A stretch of 46,275 nt of DNA from a bacterium UBP16_UBA6123 (GTDB lineage Bacteria > Muiribacteriota > UBA9980). Shown in pieces: positions 7,630-26,444 of the stretch (position 1 is its first letter; each line of letters starts with the position of its first letter). The stretch is taken from the NCBI GenBank assembly GCA_002423385.1, contig DIVV01000044.1:1-46275 (forward strand). Direction: 5' to 3'. The position numbers and the translations under genes were made by a program. The notes beneath the pieces are model-generated. The model was not told the DNA's origin. It saw only the letters and a list, made by a program, of their open reading frames with translations, and did not search any database.

Positions 7630-9156
7630 TTATTTTTTCTTTTCAGTTTCGCCTGCGCCCGGGGTTTCGGAATTATTCACATTTTCTTTACCCTCGAGCC
7701 TTTTAATTATATTTTCGAGTTTTATGCCGGTCAGCGATTCTATCGCCGGCGGAAGCTGCGCGATGACGCCGAGAACGTCGCGGGTCAGTTTGGATGCTCC
7801 GCCTTCGCCGCCGTTGCCCGAATTTATCATAACTATCTTTTCAGTGCGCGATAAAGGCTCGGCTACGGCACGGGCGAGCTCCGGCAGTTTTTCTACTACC
7901 ATCTGAACGATAGCAGCGTCGTTATATTTCTGCCATGCCGCCGCTTTTTCGCTCATCGCATCGGCTTCGGACTGGCCTTTCGCCTTTATGATTTCCGCTT
8001 CGGTTAACCCGCGGTTCTTTTCGATTTCGATCGCTGTGGCGCCTTTAGCTTTTTCGACTTCAGCCTCGGCCATACCTTTGGCTTTTTCGACTTCGACTTC
8101 GGTCAGGCTTTTAAATTTAGCCGCGCCTGCGAGCATTTCTATTTTCTGCTTTTCCGCTTCGGCCGCTTTAATTACCGTTGCCTCGAATTCCTGCTGTTTT
8201 CTTTTAACTTCTTTTTCCTGTATTTCAATCGATTTTTCTTTTTCGACGATCTGCACGTTCATTTCTTCACGCTTGACTTCCTGCTGCTTAATATTATATT
8301 CGAGATCGTAAGCAAGATCGGTCTGCGCCTTCTTTTTATTTACCGACGCCTGATATTCAGCCTGATTCATTTCGTAATCGCGGGTTTTTTCGGCGATTCT
8401 GGTCTTGGCTTCTATTTTAGCTATTTCGCCGTCGCGCGCGGCTTCGGAAGCCTTTATAGTGGCCGTCATCTGAGCGTTGGCTTCGCCTATCGAGGCGTCT
8501 TTTTTAATTTCGGCGATACGCGCTTTACCGAGCGATTCGAGGTACTGATTTTCGTCGGTTATATCGCGCAGCGTGAAGGATACGATACATAAACCCATGT
8601 TAGAAAGATCGGGAGCTGAAACCTGCTGAACCTTTATGGCGAACTCGTCGCGGTTTTTATAGATATCTTCGACGGTCATCGTGCCGAGTATGGCGCGCAA
8701 ATGACCTTCGAGCGTCTGGTGAGCGATTTTCATAATTTCAATCTGGGTTTTTGATAAGAATTGCTCCGCCGCGGTGCCTATGGATATTTCGTCTGATTTG
8801 ACTTTTATCTGGGCTACGCCGTCAACTAATACCGGAACGCCGTGCAGCGTTATAACCGGAGGGGTTTTAATATCGAGCGTGATTAATTCCATCGACATTA
8901 TCTGCGCCTGTTCGATAACCGGAATTACGAACGCGCCGCCGCCATGGACGATTCTATAGCCCACCACGGTCAGGGAGCCGTCGGGATGAATCACCTTGCG
9001 CTTGCGGCCCGAAATAATAAGAACTTCGTTAGGACCGACTTTAATATACCTCGACGCCCATATATAAGCGAAAAGGAATATTACCAGTAAGACGAAACCG
9101 GCCATATAAGCCGCCGTTGTTGACATGGAATTTAAAACTTCCATAGATTGCCCCAT
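7630..9156 (-). CDS. Flotillin-like SPFH/band-7 domain protein (YqiK/FloA-like)
   Basis: The product has an N-terminal TM helix, an SPFH domain and a long coiled coil with EA-rich repeats (AEAEVEKAKGMAEAEVEKAKG). The RBS is AAGGAGA. Confidence 0.9.
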   Translation of the reverse strand: MGQSMEVLNSMSTTAAYMAGFVLLVIFLFAYIWASRYIKVGPNEVLIISGRKRKVIHPDGSLTVVGYRIVHGGGAFVIPVIEQAQIMSMELITLDIKTPPVITLHGVPVLVDGVAQIKVKSDEISIGTAAEQFLSKTQIEIMKIAHQTLEGHLRAILGTMTVEDIYKNRDEFAIKVQQVSAPDLSNMGLCIVSFTLRDITDENQYLESLGKARIAEIKKDASIGEANAQMTATIKASEAARDGEIAKIEAKTRIAEKTRDYEMNQAEYQASVNKKKAQTDLAYDLEYNIKQQEVKREEMNVQIVEKEKSIEIQEKEVKRKQQEFEATVIKAAEAEKQKIEMLAGAAKFKSLTEVEVEKAKGMAEAEVEKAKGATAIEIEKNRGLTEAEIIKAKGQSEADAMSEKAAAWQKYNDAAIVQMVVEKLPELARAVAEPLSRTEKIVMINSGNGGEGGASKLTRDVLGVIAQLPPAIESLTGIKLENIIKRLEGKENVNNSETPGAGETEKKK

Positions 9157-9260
9157 CTCCTTTTTAATATAACTTGTTTTTATTAATGCCCGTGTGTAAA
9201 TCCGTATTTATCCCATATAAGTTCCGTTTGAATTGTATATCAATCGTGCGCTAATGCCTG

Positions 9261-9899
9261 TTATTCCTGAACATAAAGATAATTATTATCCGCTTTTATA
9301 ATATTTACTTTCCTGTTTTTTTCGATCATTTTTCCGTCGATAGATCTGGCCATCGCTACCTGGCGCCTTCCTTTGGCTGCGAATACGACCTGTCCGATAG
9401 GATTTTCATCATTTATACCGACGGTCAGTTCGCCGTTAATGCCTATCATATCGCTTTCTTTCACATTCGAAGAGCTCTGCACTTCACGAAAGACCATCGC
9501 AAAAGCGTAAAAAGTAAGCACGGCTATCATGCAGGCGAAAATAATGCCGGCTACTATGCCCATCACGGCGAAATAATTGCCGAAAACCTTCTGCCAGCAT
9601 ATTCCAAAGCCGCCGAAAGAAGTCGCGAACACCGATATCGTCATAGGAGAAAAAAGGGCCGGACCGGGAAGATTTGAATCGCCCGCGTCAGCTTGAGCGT
9701 GGGAAGTGTCATGACCGGCATGATGAATATCGACGACCCCGTCGCCTGAGTCATGAACTAATTCGTGCGACGAACTTAAATCGCCGTGATCAGCGTCGGA
9801 ATCGCCTGAAAAAGCTGAAAAAACTGCCGACAAAACGGCAAAACCAAGGCCCAGGACGAAGGAAAATGTGTATATTGACCCTAAATGCGCTTCCAGCAT
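9261..9899 (-). CDS. NfeD/YqiJ-like membrane protein, partner of the flotillin
   Basis: The product has multiple TM helices and a C-terminal NfeD-like OB-fold (GINGELTVGINDENPIGQVVFAAKGRRQVAMARSIDG). It lies directly upstream of the SPFH gene in the same orientation. An unusual His/Asp-rich loop (DSDADHGDLSSSHELVHDSGDGVVDIHHAGHDTSH) is also present. Confidence 0.75.
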   Translation of the reverse strand: MLEAHLGSIYTFSFVLGLGFAVLSAVFSAFSGDSDADHGDLSSSHELVHDSGDGVVDIHHAGHDTSHAQADAGDSNLPGPALFSPMTISVFATSFGGFGICWQKVFGNYFAVMGIVAGIIFACMIAVLTFYAFAMVFREVQSSSNVKESDMIGINGELTVGINDENPIGQVVFAAKGRRQVAMARSIDGKMIEKNRKVNIIKADNNYLYVQE

Positions 9900-10729: not shown

Positions 10730-10785
10730 TTATCGACTTATCGACTTATCGACTTATCGACTTATTCACTTATTCGCTTATTCAC
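10730..10785. repeat. Tandem 8-bp repeat (TTATCGAC x4, then TTATTCAC/TTATTCGC/TTATTCAC)
   Basis: The repeat was read directly from the convergent intergenic region between the HAD gene (+) and the ankyrin gene (-). Confidence 0.85.
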
Positions 10786-10844
10786 TTTGTTATTTATCAT
10801 TTTTTCATTTAAATCGATAAAACCCGGCCGCGTCCTTTTTCGGC

Positions 10845-12071
10845 CTATTTGCTTTTTTCGATAAGTAAAGCGGTAATGCGCGAATGTCCCTCCCGCCGGG
10901 AAAGCGATAAAGGCGTATTGCCGTGAAGCGTTACAACGTTAATATCGGCGCCGGAATCTATTAAAAGTTTAGCCGAATCATAACTGCCGATGTAAGCGGC
11001 CCAGGTCAGCGCGGTGTCGCCGTAGCAATCTTTAGCGTTAATATCGACGCCTTTTTCGATTAATAATTTTAATATATCGACGCTTCCGTGTTTTACGGCA
11101 AACGTCGCCGGCTTCATTTTTTCGTTATTCTCGTGCCTGTAATTAGCGCCATTTTCAAGCAGCAGCCTGACGATTCCGGTGAAACGGCTTTCTATGGCAT
11201 AAAATAGAGCGGTATTTCCGGCCTGATCGATTATTTCCATATCGGCGCCTTTTTCCAATAAAAGTTTTACCAGATCGGCATAGCCGCTTTTAGCCGAAAG
11301 CATAAGAGCCGTTTTCGAAGATGAATCGATGGAATTAAGTTTGAACCGGCCGCTATTTATCGAATCTATGGCGCTTTTCGGGTCGCCGGCTTTAATAAGC
11401 TGAAAAATATAATCGCCGGAAACCGTTCCGACTTTTTTAACTTTTTTAACTCCTTTGCCATCCGTATAAGAAGACTCTGAAGTTTCTTCGTTTTTCGATA
11501 TATAAATGCCTATGGCTATCAAAAACAGCATCATGACAAAACCGTATTTTATTATGGTCATAATCAGCGAAAATAAAGCGCCCAATAAATTTTTATTCTG
11601 ACGCTCCGGCGAAGTATAAATGTAGTTATCATTATCCGGCTTCAACTTTTTATTTTTTCTCACGGTTACCACGCCGCCGCGGCCGGCGGAAAGCAGCGCC
11701 GATATTTTTTTTTGAGAATATAACTCGGCGAGTTCGGCGGCGGCAAGCCCGGCGTTATCTTTTAAATGAACATTTGCGCCATTTTTTATAAGCGCCGAAG
11801 CGCTATCCGCGTTGGCGTAAGAAATGGCGTAGATAAGCGCGCTGTTTTTATTTTCATCGACTTTATCTATCGCGGCGTTTTCATTGATAAGAAATTCGAC
11901 GGTTTCGTAAGTTCCCGCCATAGCGGCTATCATTAAAATGGTAATGCCGCTTTTATCAGACCAGTTAACTAAAGACGGATCGGAGGATATGATTTTTTCA
12001 ACTCCACCTTTATCGCCGGATATCGCCGCCGCGATAAGCCTGTCATGTATAAAATTTTTATTGTTGCTCAT
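10845..12071 (-). CDS. Ankyrin-repeat protein with a central transmembrane helix
   Basis: Ankyrin repeats occur both N-terminal (DKSGITILMIAAMAGTYETVEFLINENAAID) and C-terminal (KTALMLSAKSGYADLVKLLLEKGADMEIIDQAGNTALFYAI, GDTALTWAAYIGSYDSAKLLIDSGADIN) to a hydrophobic segment (LLGALFSLIMTIIKYGFVMMLFLIAIGIYI). There is no N-terminal signal peptide. Confidence 0.8.
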   Translation of the reverse strand: MSNNKNFIHDRLIAAAISGDKGGVEKIISSDPSLVNWSDKSGITILMIAAMAGTYETVEFLINENAAIDKVDENKNSALIYAISYANADSASALIKNGANVHLKDNAGLAAAELAELYSQKKISALLSAGRGGVVTVRKNKKLKPDNDNYIYTSPERQNKNLLGALFSLIMTIIKYGFVMMLFLIAIGIYISKNEETSESSYTDGKGVKKVKKVGTVSGDYIFQLIKAGDPKSAIDSINSGRFKLNSIDSSSKTALMLSAKSGYADLVKLLLEKGADMEIIDQAGNTALFYAIESRFTGIVRLLLENGANYRHENNEKMKPATFAVKHGSVDILKLLIEKGVDINAKDCYGDTALTWAAYIGSYDSAKLLIDSGADINVVTLHGNTPLSLSRREGHSRITALLIEKSK

Positions 12072-12183
12072 AAATCACCTTTAATGAATTTATTACGCTG
12101 CTAAATTTTTTTTACAATCATTAATACCGAGCATTATTTTCGCGCATTATTTTCACGCGCTCAAATTTTTACCGCCGGATATA

Positions 12184-13200
12184 TCATGATAAAGCCGAAA
12201 GAAGCTCATCGACGACCCAGCCGTTATCCACGCAAACAAAACTCCACACTTCAGCGTATTCAACCGGCACGTATTCATCGCCTTTAACGACAGAACCGCC
12301 GGATTCGTTTACAGTATAGTCTATCATCGAAAATTTAATAAGCGCTTTCATATACCCGGCACCTGAAACGTCGTCGTTTTTAATCTCTATTATTTTAACG
12401 TCGATAATTTCAACATTCGCAATTATATTGCGCTCGCCCTTTGCCGTTATATCTTCTATGCGGCGCTGCTGCCTGTAGAAAAATCGACGGCTCATATATT
12501 TTTCGGCGCTCGATAATTCCCTTTCGCTCCATGAGCGCTGCACACACTTAAAAACTTCTTTAACGCGCTCGTATAACCGATATAAATCCTGCGTGCCGAT
12601 TTCAGACTGTTTCGCGCCGCTCGTAAGCCCGCTCGCGCCCGCCGGCGAAGATAAAGCGGAAACTGAGGAAAACGAAGCATCCGGGACTAATAAAGAAGAG
12701 GTAACTGAAATTGGAGATAAATTAAAAGAAGATGCCGAAACCGTAGTTAAAGAAGAATTGAGTCTATTTTTAGTTGATAATTTAATATTTAAATAGTGAA
12801 CAATGCCCATGATTGAAATAATTACAAAGGTGCAGAATAAAATTATTGCCGAAGCCAGATGAGCGTGCAGCGAATTGTTACCGCTTGCATACGAAGATTT
12901 ATATCTGGCGGCGCCCGATTTAGCGAACGGCCGCTTTCTGGCCTCCGTCTTATCTTTATAACCATAGCCGAAATCAAGCCCGCCGCCGTAATCAGAAACC
13001 GAATGAACGGCCTGCGATGAGGAACTGACGCTTTTAGCCTGACGCGCATAGGCGCTTTGCGTAAAATAAATAAATAAAACGGCAAAGATAAATGCCGCGG
13101 CCAAAAATGAAAAAAAGGTAGTTTTAAAGCCTTTTTTTAATTTATTTATTACGCAATTAAAGTGATTTATATCTTCGATCTTAACCGTATGAGTCGACAT
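12184..13200 (-). CDS. Membrane protein with a C-terminal Tim44-like domain
   Basis: Two TM helices, Ser-rich low-complexity linkers and a C-terminal region of about 140 aa (LYRLYERVKEVFK...RRFFYRQQRRIEDITAKGERNIIANVEII...EVWSFVCVDNGWVVDEL) resemble Tim44-like domain proteins. The call rests on motif recognition only. Confidence 0.5.
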   Translation of the reverse strand: MSTHTVKIEDINHFNCVINKLKKGFKTTFFSFLAAAFIFAVLFIYFTQSAYARQAKSVSSSSQAVHSVSDYGGGLDFGYGYKDKTEARKRPFAKSGAARYKSSYASGNNSLHAHLASAIILFCTFVIISIMGIVHYLNIKLSTKNRLNSSLTTVSASSFNLSPISVTSSLLVPDASFSSVSALSSPAGASGLTSGAKQSEIGTQDLYRLYERVKEVFKCVQRSWSERELSSAEKYMSRRFFYRQQRRIEDITAKGERNIIANVEIIDVKIIEIKNDDVSGAGYMKALIKFSMIDYTVNESGGSVVKGDEYVPVEYAEVWSFVCVDNGWVVDELLSALS

Positions 13201-13464: not shown

Positions 13465-14874
13465 TTGAGAAGAGTAGCTAAAAGTATTGCAACGGTTGTT
13501 ATTAGCGCATCATTAATGTTTAACGGCGGCGGAATTCATGCGGAAGAAATAAAAAACGAACGCATGAATAAAATAGATGTTCAAAAAACCCTCGATGAAA
13601 TCAGGGCTAAAGTAAATAAAAAAAGCGCTGAAATCAATATAAGCGCGTGCGCTGCCGATCAGCCATGCTCCGTTGAAAAAACTCAACAAACCGTAAAACC
13701 TATTAAAAAAGTAAAAGATTCACAAGATTCAGAATTTAAAAGCGAAGAATGCCTTCAGGCCGTTAAAGAAAAATCTTCGACCACGGCTAAAACTATAGCA
13801 AGTCATGAAGAAAAAATCCAGTTGGCCCAGGCCGCTCCCTTAGAAGTAAAAAAAATGGAAACAGCTCCCGCGCCTCCAACAGCGCCGGCGCCTGCTGCTG
13901 CACCGTCGCCCGTAGTTATTTCCGGCTACACACAGTTGTCGCACACGGTCAGCGACGTGCCGGCGGACAGCCACAGCTTTAACGTGGCAAGGACCAGATT
14001 CGTTTTCAAAAGAAAATTAGACGAAGACCTCAGCTTTTTTTCGCAGTTCAATATTACCGGCAATAACGCCGACTCTTCTCAAATGACGCTTACCGATTTA
14101 TTCGTGCAATATAACCTGGATAAATCACAAAATTTAATGCTCGGACAGTTCGTTGTTCCGGGTAACTATGAAGCCACAATTTCTCCGCGTGATTTGTATA
14201 TGATAAATTACGGACAACACATAATAAACACCGAACACGAAAATAGAGGCAACGACCTGCGCGACGTAGGTATAACCTACAATTACCGCAAGCCTGGCGA
14301 CAACTGGGGATTATCCATAGCGGCAGTTAACGGCGAAGGCATAAATACCCGCAACGATTCAACCGATTCAAAAACCATAATGGCGCGCCTGGACCTTGAA
14401 GCCGACAAGGCCCTCAAATTAGGCCTTTACGCCTCCGACGGCAAGCGCTTTAAAGCCGCATCCACGGCCGCTCAGGTAGCTTTTTACGGCGCAGACGGAG
14501 CCGCTACTACCGCAAAATCATTCGATAGAAAACGCGCCGGTTTTGACGCGCGCTATAAAAAAGATAAATTGACGCTTCAGGGCGTTTATGAAATTTTGGA
14601 AACCGGCCTCGCAGGCCGCGCCGGAAATCTCAAAGGTAAAGGTATGTTCGTTCAGGCCGGATATTTCGTTATGCCTAAACTTGAATTAACCTATAAACAC
14701 GACGCATTTACCCCTAATAAAGACAATACCGTTACCAAACGCACCATCAACGCCGCCGGTTTTAACTGGTTCATTAAAAAAGGCGCGAAATTACAGATGG
14801 TTTACCAGAAACAAAAAGAAACACCCGAAGTTAAAAACGACCGCCTGGATACGCTCGTTACAGTGGAATTCTAA
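13465..14874 (+). CDS. Outer-membrane beta-barrel protein, porin-like (possibly phosphate-selective porin O/P family)
   Basis: A TTG start with the strong RBS GGAGG is followed by a signal peptide (MRRVAKSIATVVISASLMFNGGGIHA). The product has a Pro/Ala-rich linker, alternating amphipathic strands and a C-terminal ...VTVEF ending in Phe. Confidence 0.6.
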   Translation: MRRVAKSIATVVISASLMFNGGGIHAEEIKNERMNKIDVQKTLDEIRAKVNKKSAEINISACAADQPCSVEKTQQTVKPIKKVKDSQDSEFKSEECLQAVKEKSSTTAKTIASHEEKIQLAQAAPLEVKKMETAPAPPTAPAPAAAPSPVVISGYTQLSHTVSDVPADSHSFNVARTRFVFKRKLDEDLSFFSQFNITGNNADSSQMTLTDLFVQYNLDKSQNLMLGQFVVPGNYEATISPRDLYMINYGQHIINTEHENRGNDLRDVGITYNYRKPGDNWGLSIAAVNGEGINTRNDSTDSKTIMARLDLEADKALKLGLYASDGKRFKAASTAAQVAFYGADGAATTAKSFDRKRAGFDARYKKDKLTLQGVYEILETGLAGRAGNLKGKGMFVQAGYFVMPKLELTYKHDAFTPNKDNTVTKRTINAAGFNWFIKKGAKLQMVYQKQKETPEVKNDRLDTLVTVEF

Positions 14875-14976
14875 TATGATAATAATCCGGTTAATTTGAT
14901 TTATTTTGATTTAACTTGATTTAATTTAATCGAGCTGACTTGAGCCAATTAAATTTAACTTAATATTTAATTTTTG

Positions 14977-15019
14977 AAGGGGAGGGAGAAAGGGTTAGCA
15001 ACCCTTTCTCCCTCCCCTT
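14977..15019. repeat. Perfect hairpin with 20-bp arms and a 3-nt loop (AAGGGGAGGGAGAAAGGGTT-agc-AACCCTTTCTCCCTCCCCTT)
   Basis: The hairpin was read directly; its purine arm and pyrimidine arm are exactly complementary. No T-tract follows, so it is not a classic terminator. Confidence 0.85.
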
Positions 15020-15090
15020 TACCCCTCCCTCTTTCGGCAAATTACCTGACGCTTTATCGCTGGTTTGTCGATAGCTTTTTCTGTCGTGGC

Positions 15091-15190
15091 TTTAATTTCT
15101 TTTTCTTTCTCTTTTTTACTTTTACTCTTTCTTTTTTGTTTCTTTATTGCTTTCTTGCCTTTTACTCATTTTTCTGCCAGCTTGCTTGTT
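15091..15190 (+). repeat. Polypyrimidine (about 85% C/T) tract on the + strand
   Basis: tttaatttctttttctttctcttttttacttttactctttcttttttgtttctttattgctttcttgccttttactcatttttctgcc was read directly from the sequence. Confidence 0.8.
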
Positions 15191-15191
15191 T

Positions 15192-15218
15192 GCATTTGCG
15201 TGCGGCGCACGCAAATGC
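15192..15218. repeat. Perfect 27-nt palindrome (13-bp arms, 1-nt centre): gcatttgcgtgcg-g-cgcacgcaaatgc
   Basis: Read directly; the motif is GC-rich within AT-rich surrounding DNA. Confidence 0.8.
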
Positions 15219-15493
15219 GCAGCGATAATGGCACTACCGTAACTATGCCTTGCGGCTCGCGGGAAAAACTAATGTAAATCGGTTTTGATAATTGCACCGT
15301 TAAAAATTATCGCAAAAATATTTAATATCGTAAAAGATAAAATTAAGTTTTGTCGAGGGCTTTTAAAATGGCGACTAATTAATTTTGTTTATCATTAACA
15401 AGGTTTATAATGCTTTTGTATAATAAAAGTTGTTATTTTTTAATGCCTTATCGTGAGCATCAATATTAAGTTCCGGCAGTGCGTAAATAGAAC

Positions 15494-15520
15494 GCCTTCG
15501 CGCGCGCCGCGCGCGAAGGC
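15494..15520. repeat. Perfect 27-nt palindrome (13-bp arms, 1-nt centre) with an alternating CG core: gccttcgcgcgcg-c-cgcgcgcgaaggc
   Basis: Read directly; its architecture matches the palindrome at 15192-15218. Confidence 0.8.
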
Positions 15521-15559
15521 AAAACTAACAAAAGACGTGAAAAAGGTTTATGGCATGAC

Positions 15560-15590
15560 AGAAAGAGAAGAAAGAGAAGAAAGAGAAAAG
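15560..15590 (+). repeat. Pure-purine run containing three tandem copies of GAAAGAGAA
   Basis: The sequence is a-gaaagagaa-gaaagagaa-gaaagagaa-aag, read directly. Confidence 0.8.
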
Positions 15591-15695
15591 CAAGGACTTT
15601 GTTTATGAGCTATTAAAAAACTTCGAAGCCGGCAGGAAATGCCGCTTGAAATAAAAAGGCTATGATAATAGACTTTTTATATTCCGGGAGAGATT

Positions 15696-15757
15696 GGGGG
15701 GCTATGGGGGGCAAGAGAGGGTCTTCGACCCTTTCTTCCCCCCCGTCCCGTTCCCGC
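15696..15757. repeat. Imperfect G/A-rich hairpin related to the one at 14977-15019 (GGGGGG..GGGGGGCAAGAGAGGGTC-ttc-GACCCTTTCTTCCCCCCC...)
   Basis: The core stem gagagggtc/gaccctttc has one G-T wobble and is extended by a G6/C7 pairing with a bulge. It shares the core agggtY...RaccctttcYYccc with hairpin A. Confidence 0.7.
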
Positions 15758-15789
15758 GTTGAAAGTATGGTTACAAATATAAGTTTTTC

Positions 15790-15818
15790 TTGACTTATTA
15801 TATATATTTTTATATACT
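15790..15818 (+). promoter_or_regulatory. Putative sigma70 promoter for the aminotransferase gene (TTGACT -17- TATACT)
   Basis: The sequence is cTTGACTtattatatatatttttaTATACTtaag, which would give a 5' UTR of about 80 nt. Confidence 0.4.
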
Positions 15819-15906
15819 TAAGACAAAAAAATAAAATAGTAATTTTGTATTCAAGTATTTAAATTTTATTTATAATGCTTACATAGAGCAATTAGGGGTG
15901 TCAAAG

Positions 15907-25964: not shown

Positions 25965-26444
25965 ATGGTATTGTTTGAAAATCAGCTCTATATAGAGTTT
26001 CCATCAAAAAAAGATTTTATAGATTTTGTGTCGAATAAGGTTATTTCATCTATTAACACTATCGCGCAGGAAGTTCATTCACAAAATATAAACGACGAAA
26101 CTTCCATGCCTCAAGATTTGAATATTTTCGGCTTTGGCATGAATCTTTCCATAGATGAAGCTCTTAAAAATGCTATAGTGCATGGAAACCGGGTCGATCC
26201 CCTGAAAAAAGTCGCGCTATCCTACTATATCAATTCGGAAAAACTCGAAATAATAGTCAGGGACGAAGGGATCGGTTTCGATCATAAAAATTATAAGGCA
26301 AATCAGGAAATTGACGCGGAAGCCGGGCGCGGGCTTCTTTTAATCAATAACTTTATGGATGAAATAAAATTTAATGAATCTGGAAATGAAATTACAATGA
26401 TTAAATATTTAGGAAAAAGTAAAACGGCAAGGGAGGACTTTTAA
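25965..26444 (+). CDS. Anti-sigma regulatory factor / Ser-Thr protein kinase of the partner-switching family (RsbW/SpoIIAB-like HATPase)
   Basis: The HATPase_c N-box and G-boxes are present (ALKNAIVHGN...IIVRDEGIGFD...GRGLLLINNFMDEIKF). The product is 159 aa. Confidence 0.75.
   Translation: MVLFENQLYIEFPSKKDFIDFVSNKVISSINTIAQEVHSQNINDETSMPQDLNIFGFGMNLSIDEALKNAIVHGNRVDPLKKVALSYYINSEKLEIIVRDEGIGFDHKNYKANQEIDAEAGRGLLLINNFMDEIKFNESGNEITMIKYLGKSKTAREDF

Follow-up and report, generated by a model that had tools for sequence, protein, structure and literature searches.

The gene described here occupies positions 10845-12071 of the minus strand in a stretch of 46,275 nucleotides (contig DIVV01000044.1 of assembly GCA_002423385.1, bacterium UBP16_UBA6123), which is called the window throughout. 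Its product, designated ANK, has ankyrin repeats before and after a single, very hydrophobic segment, and the gene is accompanied on the same strand by that of a Tim44-like membrane protein.

The ankyrin gene and its domain layout

The open reading frame (ORF) starts with ATG, is preceded by an AAGGTGA-type ribosome-binding site and encodes a product of 408 amino acids. The protein matched the Pfam families Ank_2 (E=3.6e-48, 162.5 bits, cut-off 27.3) and Ank (E=2e-42, 141.2 bits, cut-off 21.1, in 6 stretches), the best ankyrin stretches falling in the C-terminal domain. The gene and its parts are the following, where TM stands for transmembrane and pLDDT for the predicted local distance difference test.

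10845-12071, minus strand: ANK-TM-ANK gene (ORF, ankyrin Pfam matches, ten full-length orthologues at 51-91% identity).
11685-12059, minus strand: N-terminal ankyrin domain, residues 5-129, with a capping repeat and 3 repeats (AlphaFold2 helix pairs, pLDDT 84-91).
11589-11684, minus strand: linker 1 (residues 130-143, variable) and the conserved juxtamembrane motif LKPxxxNYIYxSxxRQN (residues 144-161), from the alignment.
11499-11588, minus strand: hydrophobic membrane segment, residues 162-191, with a central K175-Y176-G177-F178 motif (hydropathy, conservation, AlphaFold2).
11412-11498, minus strand: linker 2, residues 192-220, with an acidic stretch straight after the membrane segment and then a K-rich part (sequence, AlphaFold2).
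10854-11411, minus strand: C-terminal ankyrin domain, residues 221-406, with 6 helix pairs (AlphaFold2, pLDDT 83-95).

The AlphaFold2 model of ANK was built from 11 family sequences and reached a mean pLDDT of 77 and a predicted template-modelling score (pTM) of 0.48. It comprises two confident solenoids with 33-residue spacing, one of 4 helix pairs at residues 5-129 and one of 6 at residues 221-406. No contact was predicted between them, and, as the low pTM indicates, their relative orientation is not fixed by the model. The linkers at residues 130-155 and 195-220 were of low confidence and are modelled as disordered (pLDDT about 29 for linker 1 and 30-46 for linker 2), and between them stands a single unbroken helix, residues 156-194, with pLDDT 48-73. 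When the model was compared with the PDB by Foldseek, the top matches were DARPins and ankyrin-R/B (E=1e-15), which are generic ankyrin matches and gave no functional lead.

The membrane segment, LLGALFSLIMTIIKYGFVMMLFLIAIGIYI, has a 19-residue Kyte-Doolittle (KD) maximum of 2.36, and residues 160-197 are the only part of the protein above 1.5 on this measure. No window within residues 1-33 exceeded KD 1.0, and the protein is therefore regarded as having no signal peptide. This hydrophobic stretch is no ankyrin helix buried in a repeat, since the model isolates it between disordered linkers and outside both solenoids. An earlier note on this DNA, made from the letters alone, had described one strongly hydrophobic segment and no signal peptide, which is what was found, and had named a buried ankyrin helix as the alternative, which the model does not bear out. 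Its repeat counts were close: the N-side estimate of about 4 agrees with the model, and the C-side estimate of about 5 becomes 6 helix pairs by AlphaFold2 and the 33-residue register. ANK is thus a real, conserved gene for a double-ankyrin protein whose repeats flank one very hydrophobic segment.

At its 3' end the gene faces an oppositely oriented HAD gene, and the convergent stop codons of HAD (10725) and ANK (10845) leave a gap of 119 bp. The 8-bp tandem repeat that had been reported beside the ANK gene is present in this gap at 10730-10787, as TTATCGAC x4 followed by TTATTCAC/TTATTCGC variants, in about 7 copies. At 10826-10845, directly against the ANK stop codon, there is a weak hairpin (GGCCG-N10-CGGCC), after which the minus strand has a T-rich run.

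Conservation, gene pairing and distribution

Mean pairwise identity was highest in the membrane segment (0.74) and amounted to 0.62-0.64 in the ankyrin domains, the N-terminal one having 0.64. The juxtamembrane motif reached 0.63, compared with 0.31 in linker 1 and 0.29 in linker 2, and linker 2 showed insertions or deletions of up to about 20 residues across the family. Residues K144, P145, Y150, Y152, S154 and N159 were invariant in 11 sequences; of these residues the most distant member, L012, keeps just P145 and N159. The K-Y-x-F residues of the segment (K175, Y176 and F178) were invariant with L012 included, and G177 is Ser in L012. Since a passive anchor would not be so conserved, the membrane helix most probably makes specific contacts.

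Several canonical ankyrin groove positions were also invariant in the 11 aligned members, namely M51, L109 and Y118 in the N-terminal domain and K327, D352, Y360 and H383 in the C-terminal domain, where the motif DTALTWAAY is conserved as well. Because some groove positions are invariant in each domain, conserved ligands on both ankyrin domains are suggested. The entropy of the binding surface was 1.05-1.12 bits against 0.75-0.79 for the framework, a pattern typical of ankyrin proteins, and for this reason the conservation of the binding surface was rejected as a guide to compartment or ligand.

The GC content of the ANK gene (0.431), its GC content at third codon positions (GC3, 0.466) and its codon-usage distance lie inside the spread of the other 33 ORFs of the window, and its chromosomal position beside the ribosomal-protein cluster is fixed in every carrier genome. 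All carriers share one gene order, which consists of the porin-like gene (opposite strand), the Tim44-like gene, ANK, the HAD gene (opposite strand), the NfeD-like gene and FloT. The ratio of nonsynonymous to synonymous substitution rates (dN/dS) was computed against L003, the closest relative at the DNA level (dS about 0.45). It was 0.19 for ANK overall, indicating purifying selection, with 0.15 and 0.22 in the two ankyrin domains, 0.3-0.6 in the linkers and 0.048 in the juxtamembrane motif and hydrophobic segment taken together. ANK nevertheless evolves much faster than its neighbours, being 34-84% identical across the family where FloT is 88-99% and NusG 98-100% identical. ANK is a native, functional gene under purifying selection, and it was not horizontally acquired: horizontal transfer, at which the earlier note had hinted, was rejected in view of the native GC content and codon usage and of the position and synteny fixed in all carriers. 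Of the 34 ORFs, just one stands out clearly in composition, and it is a different one, a 159-aa ORF for a HATPase_c_2 (anti-sigma-factor-like kinase) protein at 25965-26444 of the window, with GC 0.348 and GC3 0.358, its GC being about 3 standard deviations under the window mean (0.446 +/- 0.031).

The partner gene and the spacer that separates it from ANK are the following.

12184-13200, minus strand: gene for a Tim44-like membrane protein of 338 aa (Pfam PF04280, 50.6 bits against a cut-off of 29.6).
12072-12183, minus strand: spacer of 112 bp between the Tim44-like gene and ANK, holding a ribosome-binding site and a 13-bp direct repeat (sequence, tandem-repeat finder).

The Pfam score substantiates the minus-strand pair with a Tim44-like membrane protein that had been noticed before, and one orthologue of the partner, P0123, bears the name 'predicted lipid-binding transport protein (Tim44 family)' in JGI naming. 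The protein has an N-terminal signal or anchor helix ending in an A-x-A-R-like sequence and a 60-residue loop rich in S, Y, G and R. These are followed by a conserved second TM (SAIxLFxTFIIIxxIGxxHYL), an S/G-rich linker and a C-terminal alpha+beta Tim44-like domain. Its AlphaFold2 model shows helices at residues 9-57 and 109-146 and an alpha+beta domain at 204-337 (three helices and a curved sheet, pLDDT about 70), and is usable for domain layout only because its mean pLDDT is 50.6. The partner evolves very fast, with a dN/dS of 0.49 against L003 and 34-67% identity where FloT is 88-99% identical. In the window's gene and its orthologues at L004, L006, L007 and L012, the long low-complexity segments rich in S, Y, G and R are wholly different between sub-lineages, but the second TM and the C-terminal domain stay conserved.

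Wherever a locus extends upstream of ANK, the Tim44-like gene lies directly upstream on the same strand, even at a protein identity as low as 34%, and the spacer measures 12-40 bp in L004, L006, L007 and L012 against 112 bp in the window. In Wallbacteria that are more distant, this locus lacks both genes together. Because of the same-strand adjacency with spacers of 12-112 bp and of this joint absence, the two genes are likely to be co-transcribed. The 13-bp direct repeat of the spacer, GCATTATTTTCAC x2.2 on the plus strand, is found at 12131-12158 of the window, and this region may be a lineage-specific internal promoter or operator.

Within a search of 5.8 billion protein clusters, ten full-length relatives of ANK were recovered (51-91% identity, 407-427 aa), below which scores fall steeply to generic ankyrin proteins. 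At 90% identity the family amounts to about 11 clusters, plus the 36%-identical member L012, which was found by synteny. Five ANK loci were present in GTDB (one genome per species), all in uncultured metagenome-assembled genomes (MAGs), and one of them is named Candidatus Wallbacteria bacterium GWC2_49_35; the orthologues of the NfeD-like gene are likewise assigned to Candidatus Wallbacteria by their source names. A scan of 241 million metagenome records yielded six further close members (51-74% identity) and 36 generic ankyrin loci. When the scan was made with an enlarged alignment, no new divergent members appeared among these records, the scan resting on essentially the same two peptide patterns as before. 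Activated sludge is given as the source of loci L016 and L019, the two of these six whose record names state a source, the other members being uncultured MAGs or metagenome contigs.

The adjacent NfeD-like protein was used as a divergence ruler for the presence or absence of the pair. It gave about 12 clusters at 71% identity or above, in agreement with the number of ANK clusters. L012, whose NfeD-like protein is 63% identical, keeps the pair, with an ANK 36% identical to that of the window. In L009, L010 and L011 (NfeD-like protein 48-55% identical; that of L010 is P0147, named Candidatus Wallbacteria bacterium) unrelated genes occupy its position. The pair is therefore fixed within one clade of Wallbacteria and absent from the locus outside it. 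Members of the ANK family were thus met in a single clade of Wallbacteria, an uncultured candidate phylum, and nowhere else; the possibility of a widespread core gene with a known function, raised earlier, does not agree with a gene that is clade-restricted, fixed there and without known function. A profile of the central module (residues 140-200) searched against 1.84 billion representatives returned its own family and one spurious repetitive match only, and because the same search missed L012, more divergent relatives may exist. The central module would thus be one without close relatives elsewhere, rather than one proven absent elsewhere.

The repeats of ANK also match proteins of anti-phage defence, PADLOC listing PDC-M72A (E=1e-48), 'Ankyrin' and MzaA, and NCBIfam listing MzaA with 121 bits, so a defence component with an ankyrin sensor domain (MzaA-like or PDC-M72A-like) was considered. 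These matches, however, cover ankyrin repeats only (residues 244-406), and the MzaA score falls far short of its cut-off, which is 800. No PADLOC model was matched by any of the five neighbouring proteins, neither ANK nor the Tim44-like protein has a sigma-factor, nuclease or ATPase domain, and the locus is fixed and no variable island. A role in defence is, in our judgement, barely credible.

Topology of the membrane segment and proposed role

Insertion energies were calculated as Hessa-type sums. The sum was -1.17 for residues 166-187 of ANK and -3.20 for a 12-residue core; it was favourable in all 12 members (-0.7 to -2.0), and over the 12-17-residue window that matters for the signal recognition particle (SRP) it ranged from -2.7 to -4.65 across the family. 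The range recognised by SRP is -1 to -2 kcal/mol (review PMC12981334). With such core energies, co-translational insertion by SRP and Sec would be expected. This route permits the export of fast-folding ankyrin domains.

The topology preferred here, with about even confidence, is a single span with the N-terminal domain inside and the C-terminal domain outside. The segment is 29-33 residues long in the family, with an arm of 11-15 residues before the Lys and a constant arm of 16-17 residues after it. Such arms suit a TM core placed after a snorkelling Lys and bordered by Tyr at each interface; they suit a symmetric hairpin less. The unbroken helix of the AlphaFold2 model, the lack of proline in the segment and the Ser of L012 in place of the central Gly likewise favour a single span, and the signal-like N-termini of about 30% of unrelated bacterial ankyrin matches, together with protein P0114 (described below), show that the export of ankyrin domains is feasible. 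Net charge was 0 to +2 in the 12 residues before the segment and -3 to 0 in the 12 after it, and the N-side flank was the more positive in 11 of the 12 sequences, with one tie. The bias was consistent only over 8-12 residues, being ambiguous over 15, 20 and 30 residues.

The same segment can be read as a monotopic or re-entrant anchor, a helix-turn-helix around K175-Y176-G177 with both ankyrin domains cytoplasmic and tethered side by side to the inner membrane face. So placed, the two might grip a partner in the cytoplasm, for instance the Tim44-like domain. An invariant polar K-Y-G/S stands at the exact centre of a segment of about 30 residues, and the linkers are similar in length (about 26 residues) and both K/R-rich within 20-30 residues. 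The lack of a signal peptide and the very high conservation of the segment, which would suit a specific packed structure, are consistent with such an anchor, and the eukaryotic ankyrin protein ANKRD22 has a hydrophobic hairpin anchor (PMC12687448). Hairpins, however, frequently use a central kink proline (PMC12687448), and proline is absent from the segment in all 12 sequences. The central Gly is not kept in L012, and the N-side arm (11 residues in L012 and 13-15 elsewhere) is too short to reach across or to pack symmetrically. A lysine at a half-buried hairpin tip would sit in the bilayer core, the model shows a straight helix with the ankyrin domains apart, and in nearly all members the segment is followed at once by 8-12 residues that are acidic on balance. 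On balance a re-entrant anchor is considered unlikely, though it deserves serious attention, and both of the arrangements proposed in the earlier note, ankyrin domains in two compartments or a re-entrant anchor, still stand.

An inverted topology with a periplasmic N-terminal domain, or a dual topology with antiparallel dimers, would agree with flank charges that are almost balanced over 20-30 residues, the condition under which dual-topology proteins occur. The bias of the immediate flanks consistently points the other way, and we know of no efficient bacterial route for translocating a folded N-terminal domain of 160 residues without a signal peptide; such an arrangement is thus improbable. 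An internal signal peptide cleaved after the segment was also considered and rejected, as no A-x-A-type site was seen past the hydrophobic core on inspection of the sequence.

Several points weigh against the N-in/C-out span and against the docking of its helix on the Tim44-like protein. The linkers are K/R-rich on both sides, with 3-7 K/R in the 20 residues past the segment and 3-9 in 30, and under the positive-inside rule and the concept of an 'export initiation domain' K/R on the C-side disfavour translocation. The charge bias of the immediate flanks is small, and the helix has a pLDDT of just 48-73 in a model from an 11-sequence alignment in which the membrane is not modelled. A 30-residue segment with a polar K-Y-G exactly central resembles a helical hairpin. 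The conserved synteny may partly reflect close relatedness of the genomes, NusG being 98-100% identical, and contact between ANK and the Tim44-like protein is proposed from gene pairing and helix conservation.

The combination of ankyrin repeats and a TM segment also recalls the Ank effectors with a TM that are made by Legionella, Coxiella, Rickettsia and Wolbachia. On that model ANK would be exported by a secretion system and would insert its TM into the membrane of a eukaryotic host, for example a protist. There are partial NCBIfam matches to Dot/Icm Ank effector models (AnkY, AnkH, AnkG and others), the pair outpaces its neighbours in divergence (identities of 34-84% for ANK and 34-67% for the Tim44-like protein, against 88-99% for FloT), and there is a proposal of highly hydrophobic TM effectors that travel by way of an intermediate in the inner membrane (PMC12981334). 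The matches to all the Dot/Icm equivalogs compared (AnkY, AnkH, AnkG, AnkX, AnkF, AnkI, AnkQ and AnkC), however, cover repeats only, with 24-107 bits against cut-offs of 450-1400. No secretion-system gene was found among the genes examined (window positions 1-28689 and related loci), the stated sources are activated sludge and nothing indicates host association, and the operon partner is itself an integral membrane protein. Composition and chromosomal position are native and fixed, and the dN/dS of 0.19 gives no sign of diversifying selection, the binding surface being modestly more variable than the framework. The SRP-window energy of the segment (-2.7 to -4.65) contrasts with 0 to +1 for effectors that escape SRP (PMC12981334); because it is far too hydrophobic to escape SRP, the segment would be targeted to the cell's own inner membrane. 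An effector of this kind is very improbable, and the hint of a host-interaction effector in the earlier note is not supported, in view of the fixed synteny, the purifying selection, the hydrophobicity within SRP range and record names that, where they state a source, give activated sludge.

ANK is accordingly described, with confidence that is neither high nor low, as an integral inner-membrane scaffold made for the bacterium's own use. In the mechanism proposed, the 160-residue N-terminal part, including the 4-repeat ankyrin domain, would fold in the cytoplasm. The hydrophobic segment (residues about 166-191), on leaving the ribosome, would be bound by SRP, and SecYEG would insert it as a signal-anchor that spans the membrane once, with K175 snorkelling to the cytoplasmic interface and Y176 and Y190 placed at the two interfaces. 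The acidic stretch, the flexible K/P/Q-rich spacer and the 6-repeat C-terminal ankyrin domain would then be translocated co-translationally to the periplasm. Ankyrin repeats are generic protein-binding modules, and one protein-binding ankyrin surface would be displayed on each face of the inner membrane. The conserved ANK helix would pack on a further helix, for which the second TM of the Tim44-like protein, its likely co-transcribed partner, is the best candidate, and the two proteins would form a lineage-specific two-protein membrane module. The full form of this proposal, a two-compartment ankyrin adaptor whose sequence-specific TM is docked on the Tim44-like protein in a previously undescribed lineage-specific transmembrane scaffold, is put forward only tentatively.

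The architecture is a new arrangement within a very well-known repeat family and is limited to one clade of an uncultured phylum. What is unusual in it is that the ankyrin repeats stand around a membrane segment conserved better than any other part of ANK, and that the gene is paired in a fixed, operon-like manner with a Tim44-like one. If the two domains lie in different compartments, ANK would give bacteria a simple means of linking events on the two sides of the inner membrane. The scaffold would then form a physical bridge in Wallbacteria between a partner in the periplasm or outer envelope and one in the cytoplasm, much as membrane-cytoskeleton adaptors do in eukaryotes. ANK would also offer a clean model of how a repeat domain that folds fast is exported co-translationally behind an internal signal-anchor. 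The practical impact is small: the family does not extend past one clade of an uncultured candidate phylum, and no long-standing question hangs on it.

Neighbouring features and comparison with known systems

The NfeD-like/FloT (flotillin) pair lies at 7630-9899 of the window, on the same strand as the Tim44-like/ANK pair, and an oppositely oriented HAD-IB hydrolase gene is all that separates the two pairs. In this clade, including L012, FloT directly follows the ribosomal L10-L7/L12 genes, in the usual place of rpoB/rpoC. In more distant Wallbacteria (L009 and L010) FloT adjoins a peptidase M23 gene and the ATP synthase operon. Beyond the Tim44-like gene, positions 13465-14874 encode a 469-aa porin-like protein whose N-terminus is signal-like, which contains an A/P-rich spacer and which ends in ...VTVEF. 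The designation 'porin' in the earlier note is partly backed by a precomputed Pfam match (PF07396, Porin_O_P) together with the signal-like N-terminus and the ...VTVEF end, but our own Pfam-A scan gave no match at E<=1. Between this gene and an aminotransferase gene, about 1 kb (14875-15897) is without a long ORF. Strong palindromes rich in GC occur in it at three places (about 14977-15020, 15488-15522 and 15690-15750), along with a CT-rich tract of low complexity (15096-15155) and three copies of AGAAAGAGA (15560-15587); no Rfam family matched in it at the gathering threshold.

Literature searches on the biology of Wallbacteria, on Tim44-like proteins of bacteria and on ankyrin proteins that are bitopic or periplasmic returned nothing describing this architecture or pairing, nor any description of a Tim44-like family associated with ankyrin proteins. 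The Tim44-like partner resembles bacterial PF04280 proteins in passing the gathering score and in its signal or anchor, low-complexity loop, TM and alpha+beta domain, and differs from those described in being paired with an ankyrin gene and in its very fast evolution (dN/dS 0.49).

The Dot/Icm Ank effectors of Legionella and Coxiella share with ANK the combination of ankyrin repeats and hydrophobic TM segments. About 80% of the analysed TM effectors of Legionella and Coxiella (and B. abortus) have a hydrophobicity too low for SRP (PMC12981334). ANK differs from such effectors in a TM within the SRP-recognised range, in widely missing the equivalog cut-offs, in its native chromosomal synteny and in purifying selection.

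ANKRD22, one of the eukaryotic monotopic hairpin proteins (PMC12687448), is like ANK in joining ankyrin repeats to a hydrophobic stretch, about 30 residues long, that is polar in the middle. An anchor of this kind would account for two soluble domains in a single compartment. ANK, on the other hand, has no central proline, does not keep the Gly, and has asymmetric, variable arms and a straight helix in its AlphaFold2 model. ANK is presumed to reside in the bacterial inner membrane, as opposed to the endoplasmic reticulum or lipid droplets for the eukaryotic hairpin proteins.

AnkB of Pseudomonas aeruginosa, encoded in the katB-ankB operon, is described as periplasmic in PMC12754779, which cites Howell et al. 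2000. As portrayed there, it is, like ANK, a bacterial ankyrin protein for the cell's own use that works with the product of its operon partner. It differs in having a single ankyrin block and a catalase partner, where ANK has two blocks around an internal TM and a Tim44-like partner. A periplasmic helper of the KatB-AnkB type was considered for ANK and rejected: its neighbours are the Tim44-like, HAD, NfeD-like, FloT and porin-like genes, with no catalase gene nearby, and the protein has no N-terminal hydrophobic segment that could serve as a targeting signal.

The ankyrin search gave 2776 significant matches among 8000 scored candidates. Of the 110 non-family matches listed (P0011-P0120), about 33 begin with a signal-peptide-like or lipoprotein-like hydrophobic segment, as judged by a hydrophobicity heuristic. 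Because of this proportion, exported ankyrin proteins appear to be common in environmental bacteria, and many environmental bacterial ankyrin proteins, being exported or membrane-bound, should not automatically be annotated as 'eukaryote-like effectors'. These numbers, together with protein P0114, which has the order signal peptide, ankyrin repeats, TM and ankyrin repeats, do not agree with the earlier view of bacterial ankyrin proteins as uncommon and usually soluble.

P0114 (MBP6407312.1, 'ankyrin repeat domain-containing protein', from an uncultured Fusobacteriaceae bacterium; locus L008, 2787-4700; 91 near-identical sequences in public data) is like ANK in having ankyrin repeats on both sides of one strongly hydrophobic TM. 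Unlike ANK, it has a clear signal peptide and the sequence RGKKNSKYK after its TM, and hence an unambiguous N-out/C-in topology. It is larger (637 aa, with about 12 and 6 repeats), its TM is unrelated and without the K-Y-G-F motif, and it belongs to a different phylum. Its gene has no Tim44-like neighbour and adjoins those of a MarR regulator and an efflux adaptor. Judged by its sequence, P0114 shows that ankyrin domains in two compartments arise elsewhere, and independently.

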